64,000 nt of DNA, taken from NCBI RefSeq assembly GCF_053078305.1, contig NZ_CP166879.1; one strand, given 5' to 3'. Of this stretch, positions 24,771 through 28,000 are shown in pieces. The first letter of the stretch is position 1. Each line of letters begins with the position of its first letter. The notes under the pieces were generated by a model. The model saw only the letters and a program-made list of their open reading frames with translations. It did no database searches and was not told the DNA's origin. Both the position numbers and the translations under genes were made by a program.

Positions 24771-25034
24771 CTATTTGATTTTGCTTAAAATATTATTGAC
24801 TATCGGTATTACAGAACTAACCAATTGCTCTTCCTCAACTGTATACAAAAGCAATTCGATCTCATTCTCCGCATTAAATAACATTGTATGGAGCCACTTT
24901 TCCTCAACAGCAACAATTTGGCTTTCCGCAGCATAAATTTCTGATTGAATACTTTGTACCGTTATTTTCCCTTCAAGAAAGTTTTTACAAGAGTGTTGTA
25001 ACCTCTCGATCACCTCAGGATAAATCCAACTCAT
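24771..25034 (-). CDS. cdiI: CDI immunity protein
   Basis: 87-aa ORF whose ATG overlaps the cdiA stop (ATGA); AGGAG 6 nt upstream. Confidence 0.7.
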
Positions 25035-28000
25035 TGCCCACTCCTGCGAAGAATAGTAACAATAATATTACTGTTATTTTCAGTGACTACACCTACGTCA
25101 CCACTCCAATAAGTCGTTCTAGTTACGCCATTAACGACACTATTTTGAGGAGTTCCTTCTTTGATAACACTTTCAACCATATTCGGCGTTATATTTCTCC
25201 CTGGGCCAACTGTGCCGGCTGGAGAACCTAAACCAGATGGCTGCATTCTATCAACAGCATGTTGTGAATACAAACGATGACCTATTTGTGCATATTGTCG
25301 CCCATCTACTGTAACCTTTCGATAATTTTGCCAAGAGTCCCAAGGTAACTTTTCAGAACTATTAGGTACGTTTTCTGATGAGGTTTTCTCATTACGTTGC
25401 TCTATTGATTCATTATTCCTGGCGTTCTCCTCATCCTGCGGCTCCCATCCCCCCGGTGTTCCAGCATCTGCGCCACCAAGCTCAGCTTTCTCCTTGTCCG
25501 TAGCGCTCGCTACGTCTTTGCCCAGATTCGGCTGTTTGTTTTCGTCTGTATTGTCGCCATTCAGCACATGCCCCGGCCCCCGGGCACCATCGCGACTCGG
25601 ATCACGTACAGCACACTGTTCCCGTGAGCCTTCACAACCACCACCGGTATCCCAGCTATTATCATTCCCGGTATCCTTACTGGCATTACCTGTAGCACCA
25701 GCTATTGCTGCTGCCGTATTAGCTGCTGTTTCAGTGGCTATCACGTTCAGCATATTGTTTTCAGCCGAGTTCCTGCCTGCCTGTGCACCCGTACCGGCAG
25801 ACGTCGTACTGTTGCCGGCAAGCCCGCCCGCAATCCCTGAGGCAATGGTGGCCAGCATGCTGATTTGCTGACGTTCCTGTTCACTCAGGCTATCGGTACG
25901 ACCACCGTAGTAGTTATCAATGATATACCGGGCTGCAAGTTCACCACTGAATGCCCCTGCAGCACCGGAAGCCGCATTGTTTCCACCCAGTTGTGCAGCA
26001 AGCGCTCCCCAGACTGCGTGAGCCATCAGGTTTGCTTCCCGGTTATCGCCGGTGGCCTGTTTTATAAGCTGTGCCACTGCCGGATTCAGACCGCCAGCCA
26101 GTACCTGCCCCGGATTCCCTGCATTCAGTCCGCCCAGCACACCCGTGATGGCCTGTACCACCATCTGCGGCGTACTGCCCGTACCGTAGCCTTTCATGAC
26201 CTCTCTGTATTCCGGGGTCTCCCGCAACTGTGCATCGCTCATGCCAGGATGCTCTTTCCTGGCTGCTTTCATCGCTTCAGTTTCGCCATACGTCATGACG
26301 ATGTTACTCATCTGACCGCTAATCTGGCTGATAACCTGCGCTTCCTGAAGACGCTTCTGCTCTTTCTCCCTGTCAAATATCGGTGCAATGCTGCCGTTGG
26401 CATTTTCCGGGTCCCGGCTGAGCCCGGCAATACCCTGCATCTGACTCTCCTTATTACGGATAATGAGATTTCCGCCGCTGATGGCGGATGACGTGGTACC
26501 TTCAGCATGTCCACTGCTGCCGGACATACCGGTAAGTGCGTTCGCCGCACCGGCTATTGCATTTGAAGCCACCATCTGGCTGGCTGACATCCCTGAGCCA
26601 CCCGATAAACTGATTCCGGTATGGCTGGCTTTATAGTCTGCCTGGTTATGGATATCCGACCAGCCCAGCGTGCCGGTACTGAGGCTGTTTTTGTCATCCG
26701 TTGCCGTGGACGCAATTACCGCACCATTGAGCTGAGTGTGATTCCCCACAGTGACATCAAACCCGTCTTTTCCGGCGTAGATACCACTCTGTTCCCGGAC
26801 AGAATCGTAATTGCTTTTGATTTTGTCCTGACTGATGCTGGCATAGCCGCTGCCGGACATTGAGCCAAACGTGAAGCTGCCACCTGCAGCCACGCTGTTT
26901 TGTCTGCTGTCGTAACGGTCACTGTCCTGAAGACTCGAAATGGTCAGGTTATTACCCACATCCGCTGTGACTTTCTCACCACTGACCTGAGCCCCCGACA
27001 GGGTGGTATCACGTCCGCTTGTGAGGGAGACATTTTTACCCGCATCCAGCGTGGTTTCGGTCCAGGTCGTGCTGCTGCCTTTCTCACTGCCTTTGGAGCC
27101 GTTAATGCTGGCGAAGATACTGAGGCCCCCGCCATTGGTTCCACCACCAAAGCTGACGCCCACGCCGCCACCTTTGCTGCTGTTCTTCCCGGTGGTCTGT
27201 CGGGTGTCAGCGGCGGCAGCCAGCAGAATATCGTTCTGTGCATTCAGACTGGTGTCATTGCCGGACTTAATCTGGCTCCCGGTAATGAGAATATCGCCGC
27301 TGTTGTTATGGTCCTTATTTTTCCCCGTGGCAGTGACGGAGACATTGTTACCGGCGCTGAGGGTTGAGCCGGAGACGATATCGTGCTGATATTTCGTCTC
27401 AGACTTCGACTGCTGATGGTTGAGCGAAATGCTCACGCCGATACCATTATTCTGGTCAGCACTCTGTTGCTGCAGTCCGTGGTTAACACCGGCCTGTACA
27501 CCGGACAGAACCGCCTGTGTTCCTTTCAGTGCCGCCAGACGGCTGTCGCTGGTTTCTTTCGACTCCCGGGCCATGGTTGCAGCATTATTGATGGCACTGC
27601 CCACCGTGCCGGAAAGGGCAACCGTCAGCCCGCTTTTCTTCTGCTCAAATTTTTCGTCCACAGTACGACGGTCATGCCCCGGGTCAACCACCACACTGTC
27701 ACCGGTAATGCTGATATCCCGGTTCGCAATCACATCCGAACCGCTGATATGTACCTGTTTGCCCGCGGTAATACTGACATTACCGGCAGTGGAGCCGATG
27801 GTACTGGCACTCTGACTCTGCGTTGTCCCGGCTTCGCGGCGGTCGTGCGTTGTCTTACTGCTGCCAGTGGTGAAGCCAGTACCGCCGGTACCCGTCAGAC
27901 CGGATTTCTTCGTTTCCTTAAAGCGCCAGGACGTATCTGTACTGGTGGCAGCAAGAACATCAACATGGTTACCTGCCGCCAGTGACACATCCCGGTCAGC

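Follow-up and report, generated by a model that had tools for sequence, protein, structure and literature searches.

The C-terminal toxin module of a resident Escherichia coli CdiA carries an AENN allele of the VENN motif and a BECR-fold domain of the DUF4258 type

The C-terminal toxin regions (CTs) of the contact-dependent inhibition (CDI) effector CdiA of Escherichia coli have been catalogued by toxin and by cytoplasm-entry domain, and the closest described system to the one analyzed here is CdiA-CT type 8, whose toxin is listed as DUF4258 with the annotation 'tRNase (?)' and which, like type 1 (DUF769), has its entry domain listed as '#11-unknown' (PMC11630599). Entry family #11, for which the receptor is listed as unknown, is found with DUF769, DUF4258 and one BECR tRNase as partners (Halvorsen 2024, PMC11630599, Table 2; Bartelli 2022, PMC9424206, Supp. 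Table 1). A 2025 survey places DUF4258 among the BECR families of the RelE/ParE superfamily, and lists it under type II toxin-antitoxin modules in which the antitoxin gene comes first, with DUF4258-MqsA fusions also reported (PMC11980606). Release of the CT is abolished by an N4A substitution in VENN (VENA), by an extra Asn, or by deletion of the residue that follows VENN (PMC9424206). The loading of orphan CT modules onto the main cdiA gene was described for other modules by Poole et al. 2011 (PMC3150448). The present analysis concerns an E. coli cdiBAI-type locus located on the minus strand of a 64,000-nucleotide stretch (the window) of contig NZ_CP166879.1 (assembly GCF_053078305.1), and in particular the CT of its CdiA and the immunity gene cdiI that follows it (Table 1).

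The CT in the window is a known orphan-type module loaded on a main cdiA, and it probably serves as the toxic end of a working E. coli CdiA effector that is assembled from three exchangeable pieces. The first is a pretoxin domain that ends in AENN, which is a natural Ala allele with ENN intact, including the second Asn that is required for CT release, and at which processing is predicted to occur. The second, an entry domain of about 104 residues with one Cys pair, would carry the toxin, after cleavage, over the inner membrane of the target cell via a membrane protein. The third is a BECR-fold toxin of about 105 residues from the DUF4258 branch of RelE/ParE, which would most likely be a metal-independent endoribonuclease, probably acting on tRNA, with His3089, Arg3093, Arg3110, Lys3070, Tyr3086 and Thr3148/Glu3149 as the candidate active site. 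The overlapping CdiI would bind and neutralize the toxin in the producer cell.

Table 1. Features of the cdiA 3' region, cdiI and the orphan modules, in window coordinates.
Feature	Coordinates	Strand	Residues or length	Basis or remark
cdiA	25031..34525	minus	3164 aa	Open reading frame (ORF) list and translation; identical to WP_077773372.1 (exact-sequence look-up)
PT-VENN pretoxin domain	25745..25894	minus	2878-2927	Pfam PF04829, E 8.2e-17, model positions 2-51 of 52
AENN motif	25754..25765	minus	2921-2924	Codons gct gaa aac aat
Cytoplasm-entry domain (MLNVIATE...GTPGGWE)	25442..25753	minus	2925-3028	Shared DNA and breakpoint at nt 25444
Junction motif	25442..25510	minus		At the entry-toxin border
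Acidic/polar linker (...SSEK)	25349..25441	minus	3029-3059	Moves with the toxin domain; GC drops from 0.54-0.61 to about 0.4
Toxin domain	25034..25348	minus	3060-3164	BECR fold; DUF4258-type core with added N-terminal beta-hairpin
HAVDRM motif	25244..25261	minus	3089-3094	Helix 1; H 0.99 and R 0.97 conserved (176 aligned sequences)
Loop insertion	25199..25237	minus	3097-3109	13 residues relative to the Pfam DUF4258 model; pLDDT <50
cdiI	24771..25034	minus	87 aa	ORF; overlaps the cdiA stop in ATGA; predicted four-helix bundle
Orphan 1	23183..24685	minus
Orphan 1 VENN	24074..24085	minus
Orphan 1 Gly-rich ORF	23413..24090
Orphan 1 hydrophobic ORF	23183..23416		77 aa
Orphan 2	21756..23176	minus
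Orphan 2 VENN	23165..23176	minus
Orphan 2 toxin ORF	22291..22653			4ZQU_A, E 1.9e-56; 4G6U_A
Orphan 2 immunity ORF	21756..22133			4ZQU_B, E 5.5e-62

A first search with the last ~105 residues of CdiA returned 43 close relatives (Izhakiella, Photorhabdus, Gilliamella and Snodgrassella), and a profile search yielded 690 representative clusters, 444 of them at E ≤ 1e-10. In every match listed, the matched stretch was located at the C-terminus or within a few residues of it, the longest of these proteins having 2826 aa. For some clusters, regular expressions combined with inspection showed VENN/AENN or Rhs DPxGL motifs in front of the toxin domain. Alignment of 176 sequences identified K3070, Y3078, R3084, Y3086, H3089, R3093, R3110 and T3148 as near-invariant polar residues, with D3092 and E3149 conserved at about 0.8. 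The AlphaFold2 (AF2) model of the domain (pLDDT 78.5, pTM 0.70) comprises an N-terminal hairpin, helix 1 with the HAVDRM motif, a low-confidence loop, helix 2 and a four-stranded sheet, and the packing of helices on an antiparallel sheet of four to five strands is structurally like that of known members of the BECR fold. A Foldseek search against AFDB50, which the initial annotation had proposed as a check, recovered family members as well as several proteins named DUF4258.

After deletion of the loop insertion, the window sequence matched the Pfam DUF4258 model (PF14076) with an E-value of 1.6e-5, in an alignment that begins at YSQHAVDRM, extends to the final strand of the core and spans model positions 1-68 of 71, and loop-deleted relatives likewise matched this model in 18 of 24 cases at E ≤ 0.001 and in 23 of 24 at E ≤ 0.1. 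The Pfam hidden Markov model (HMM) misses the intact domain because of the loop insertion and the N-terminal hairpin. The Prokaryotic Genome Annotation Pipeline (PGAP) separately names orphan copies of the toxin 'DUF4258 domain-containing protein'. PGAP also gives the name 'contact-dependent inhibition effector tRNA nuclease' to every full-length cdiA, with a DUF4258-type, a DUF769-labelled or an EC869-type CT (L001, L002, L003, L012 and L014); because it is given to every CT type, this product name is no evidence of the activity of the window toxin.

Several points weigh against the proposed assignment and mechanism. The native window sequence did not match PF14076 at E ≤ 10, none of 33 intact relatives matched it at E ≤ 0.1, and the intact domain also failed the Pfam, NCBIfam, PHROGs and PADLOC models. 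Searches of the PDB by sequence found no relative of the intact domain, and a profile of the 33 relatives matched nothing. The DUF4258 motif served as the guide in choosing which loop to delete, and this biases the test. No DUF4258 protein is known to have enzymatic activity, and the 2025 survey lists the target of the family as unknown (PMC11980606). The published mutational data found for VENN are confined to the second Asn and the following residue. Finally, the window entry segment appears to fit published family #11, a number that derives from shared partner toxins and not from an alignment with WP_077898481.1 and WP_096965290.1. The likeness to the type 8/entry #11 CT likewise consists in labels and partners, both being CTs of E. 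coli CdiA with the NCBI label DUF4258 and with an entry domain shared with a DUF769-labelled toxin; no mention of the 13-residue loop insertion was found for that system. A search of the Bartelli supplement, in which no sequences are printed, for the MLNVIATE peptide and for strain names brought no confirmation of the family.

The closest structural neighbor of the window domain, CdiA-CT NC101 (PDB 5I4Q), is an EF-Tu-dependent tRNA acceptor-stem nuclease; it shares 6% sequence identity with the window domain, and the two immunity proteins are unrelated. Neither homology to NC101 nor its catalytic pair, Arg200 and His248, was found in the window domain, whose candidate residues are placed differently on the fold. 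Because Arg200 and His248 sit elsewhere on the fold, the substrate and the EF-Tu dependence of NC101 are not transferable to the window toxin. No sequence-level homology was found to the colicin E5 tRNase domain, BrnT, or RelE/YoeB/HigB, and unlike these the window domain has an N-terminal beta-hairpin (WxSWxxYxK...) and the loop insertion. It differs from the DUF4258 proteins of type II toxin-antitoxin modules in being the tip of a secreted polymorphic toxin with a four-helix immunity protein. Salmonella Rhs2-SciX, described in a preprint, was considered as a relative and rejected, its toxin being 5T86-like and unrelated.

RNase activity is the best-supported prediction for the toxin, and the suggestion of a small nuclease/RNase-type toxin in the initial annotation appears reasonable. 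It is quite unlikely that the domain has the RelE/ParE fold without being a nuclease, acting as a ParE-like gyrase poison or as a binder of a translation factor or the ribosome without cleavage of RNA: the best structural matches (NC101, BrnT and colicin E5) are RNases, the near-invariant His/Arg/Arg/Lys/Tyr/Thr-Glu set is typical of BECR RNases, and the CDI literature predicts a tRNase. A possible but rather doubtful extension of the RNase assignment is that the toxin may dock a cofactor such as EF-Tu, in the manner of NC101, via its N-terminal hairpin and inserted loop, and would thus cleave tRNA by a cofactor-dependent mechanism new to DUF4258. Equally doubtful, and separate from this, is that the Ala allele may tune CT release for this entry domain instead of being simply tolerated.

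The segment between the pretoxin domain and the toxin was examined by a megablast search with nt 25349..25780 of the window. The first ~337 nt, to nt 25444 (residue ~3028), were present in 208 of 5426 complete E. coli genomes with 93-99% identity, and 33 of these 208 genomes also hold the toxin and cdiI. In SMBL, RM8082, M9, C11 and pToe17-1, the entry segment is followed by a different toxin, labelled DUF769 by PGAP, and by a DUF596 immunity gene, and homology to CTs with another toxin stops at nt 25444. Upstream of ~25440 the GC content lies at 0.51-0.61; the toxin and cdiI have values of 0.39-0.44 and 0.34-0.37, respectively, and the drop coincides with the breakpoint. The entry segment, which carries a C-x6-C pair, is an independent module common to DUF4258-type and DUF769-labelled toxins, as in a bipartite CdiA-CT. 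DUF769 was not matched by Pfam on the partner toxin of SMBL, though PGAP labels the same toxin DUF769 in C11, and a search of the PDB with this partner toxin gave no match.

The stretch rich in D/E/N/G and the terminal domain of ~100 aa that had been noted earlier are both present in the sequence; the description of the stretch as a low-complexity linker did not hold, as it is mostly entry domain with only ~30 residues of linker. That the stretch is a passive flexible linker only, without entry function, would be in keeping with its biased composition and with the lack of Pfam or PDB matches, save for a short linker-like stretch of the UPEC536 CT, the only match of the PDB search with the CT (5J43/5J5V, E about 0.003). 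This is nevertheless regarded as very unlikely, given that its DNA is conserved at the identity stated above in 208 genomes as a discrete unit that moves between toxins and has sharp edges at ENN and GTPGGW, that a Cys pair is present, as in most entry domains, and that the stretch sits at the entry-domain position of every characterized CdiA-CT. An entry domain, with entry predicted to depend on a receptor, is the preferred assignment.

In proteins P0002, P0020 and P0065, which have other entry domains, the toxin is likewise preceded by the linker proper. At the entry-toxin border a junction motif, N(L/I/V)(G/A)K(D/E)...(D/E)K(A/V)E(L/F/I)GG.G.GT(PGGW), was observed, which is also present in the FtsH-dependent UPEC536 CT (PDB 5J43/5J5V) and behind the other entry domains of the same three proteins. 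Because it overlaps the breakpoint and the GC drop, the junction motif may be a second shared exchange joint besides VENN.

At the boundary of the resident CT no literal VENN was found; the motif is AENN, with ENN kept, and the PF04829 profile match is located directly upstream of the variable CT. Because this match runs to model position 51 of 52, AENN occupies the VENN slot of the model, and chance is not at issue, since the domain is strongly matched and the motif stands at its homologous position. Nine aligned copies of the module from different E. coli genomes have the common codons G(C/T)T GAA AAC AAT ATG CTG AAC GTG, and their sole difference in the motif is GCT (Ala) versus GTT (Val), one C/T transition; other CT modules have the motif codons GAG AAT AA(T/C). 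Translation identified AENN-MLNVIATE in FEX669, SMBL, RM8082, 04-00955, IGC, JML285 and C11, behind three upstream sequences (AGRNS, a version of AGRNS with a 4-nt deletion, and SKNA), and VENN-MLNVIATE in strain M9 and in the orphan array of O157:H7 FRIK944. With a 70-nt probe spanning the AENN junction of the window, matches covering 80% or more of the probe were obtained in 123 of the complete genomes, against 71 for the corresponding VENN probe; both counts are approximate, as some matches are common to the two probes. The AENN junction was found beneath annotated cdiA in FEX669, SMBL, M3, RSHH22, SK6988 and plasmid pToe17-1, and copies of the junction that are identical or have one mismatch sit under annotated full-length cdiA genes. 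The string AENN was not found in the text of PMC11630599, in the PMC9424206 supplement or in the top-ranked papers of a literature search on the motif.

Individual AENN copies showed further features. Plasmid pToe17-1 (NZ_CP069094.1, 148 kb) carries a full-length cdiA whose 70-nt junction is identical to the AENN junction of the window, and in an EC93 plasmid (NZ_CP061330.1, 127 kb) an unannotated stretch partly matches the beginning of the entry domain. In 04-00955 (L004 1440..1580) and ~58 similar genomes, a common orphan form of the AENN junction lacks 4 nt immediately upstream of the motif, so that the CT and the remnant of the pretoxin domain are in different frames. An unrelated CdiA-like protein of 2037 aa (P0115) has AENN-VLPAVLL, with the motif at residues 1829-1832, followed by a hydrophobic, unrelated entry domain and a toxin of the same family, and its AENN is an independent occurrence of the Ala allele.

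The sensitivity of processing to the motif, as seen in the VENN variants mentioned above, would favor the alternative that AENN is disabling, so that the resident CdiA does not release its CT and the locus is decaying. Against this, the 3164-aa cdiA ORF is intact, several full-length cdiA genes that are annotated as such, one of them on a plasmid, have the AENN junction, which is found behind three upstream sequences, the unrelated 2037-aa protein carries AENN independently, and ENN is unchanged. A disabled motif is the least probable of the alternatives considered here. AENN is instead a circulating single-transition allele that was spread by recombination, and not a signature of toxin origin. 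The initial annotation was correct in that AENN replaces VENN, that an 87-aa CdiI stands beside the CT, and that both orphans have canonical VENN. Its proposal that the V/A residue marks different origins of the resident and orphan toxins was rejected because the identical module follows VENN in the FRIK944 orphan array.

The toxin and cdiI were found in 33 of the 5426 genomes, at identities of at least 99% in 31. In two genomes (FEX669 and A19) they are located under an annotated cdiA, and the rest have orphan or fragment annotations, including those of O157:H7, O111 and O145. The FRIK944 orphan has the same entry domain, toxin and cdiI as the window, with 97.7% identity over 1.1 kb and 99.7% over the toxin and cdiI. 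The FRIK944 copy is a promoterless orphan with another pretoxin remnant and VENN (GTT), whereas the window copy belongs to a full-length cdiA with AENN (GCT). The cdiA of FRIK944 encodes WP_001075571.1, the accession given for EC869 CdiA.

The two orphan modules, downstream of the resident cdiA, encode toxins that are unrelated to the resident one; this is evident from the toxin sequences themselves, not from the V/A residue. Orphan 1 starts with GKNAVENN and then shifts frame into the Gly-rich ORF, which is followed by the hydrophobic ORF, and it resembles an ionophore-type CT paired with a membrane immunity protein; the copies in IGC and FRIK944 are intact and lack the frameshift. Orphan 2 begins at VENN, has no upstream cdiA homology and is split into several ORFs, one of which matches the EC869 o11-type DNase toxin and another EC869 CdiI, the latter being shorter at the N-terminus.

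As is expected of a cognate immunity gene, cdiI is small, lies immediately behind the toxin and co-varies with it. The AF2 model of CdiI has a pLDDT of 95.7, and its homologues form 52 clusters, none with a Pfam domain. Homologues of 87-88 aa with 51-68% identity directly follow the toxin in three distant loci, from Photorhabdus, an Rhs locus and Snodgrassella (L008, L009 and L011), and the toxin and immunity protein are thus conserved together. Searches of CdiI against the PDB gave only chance coiled-coil and cupin matches, and those against Pfam, NCBIfam, PHROGs and PADLOC gave nothing usable. In L009 (5001..5791), and also in P0007 and P0009, the pair stands behind the end of an Rhs core (...DPLGL), next to a Barstar-family gene. 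Such arrangements show that the toxin/immunity pair has been exchanged between the delivery systems of CDI and Rhs type. Many of the relatives are from the bee-gut symbionts Snodgrassella and Gilliamella.

In conclusion, the toxin type of this CdiA is already catalogued. AENN amounts to a minor polymorphism; dozens of complete E. coli genomes carry this circulating allele, which is also found within intact cdiA genes. Scanners for a literal VENN will miss CT boundaries of the AENN type. The analysis also explains a blind spot of the Pfam HMM for a toxin domain that is widespread on CdiA, Rhs and other carriers. The DUF4258 branch has ~6,000 members in Pfam, and the CdiA-CT of the window could be a tractable entry point to it.

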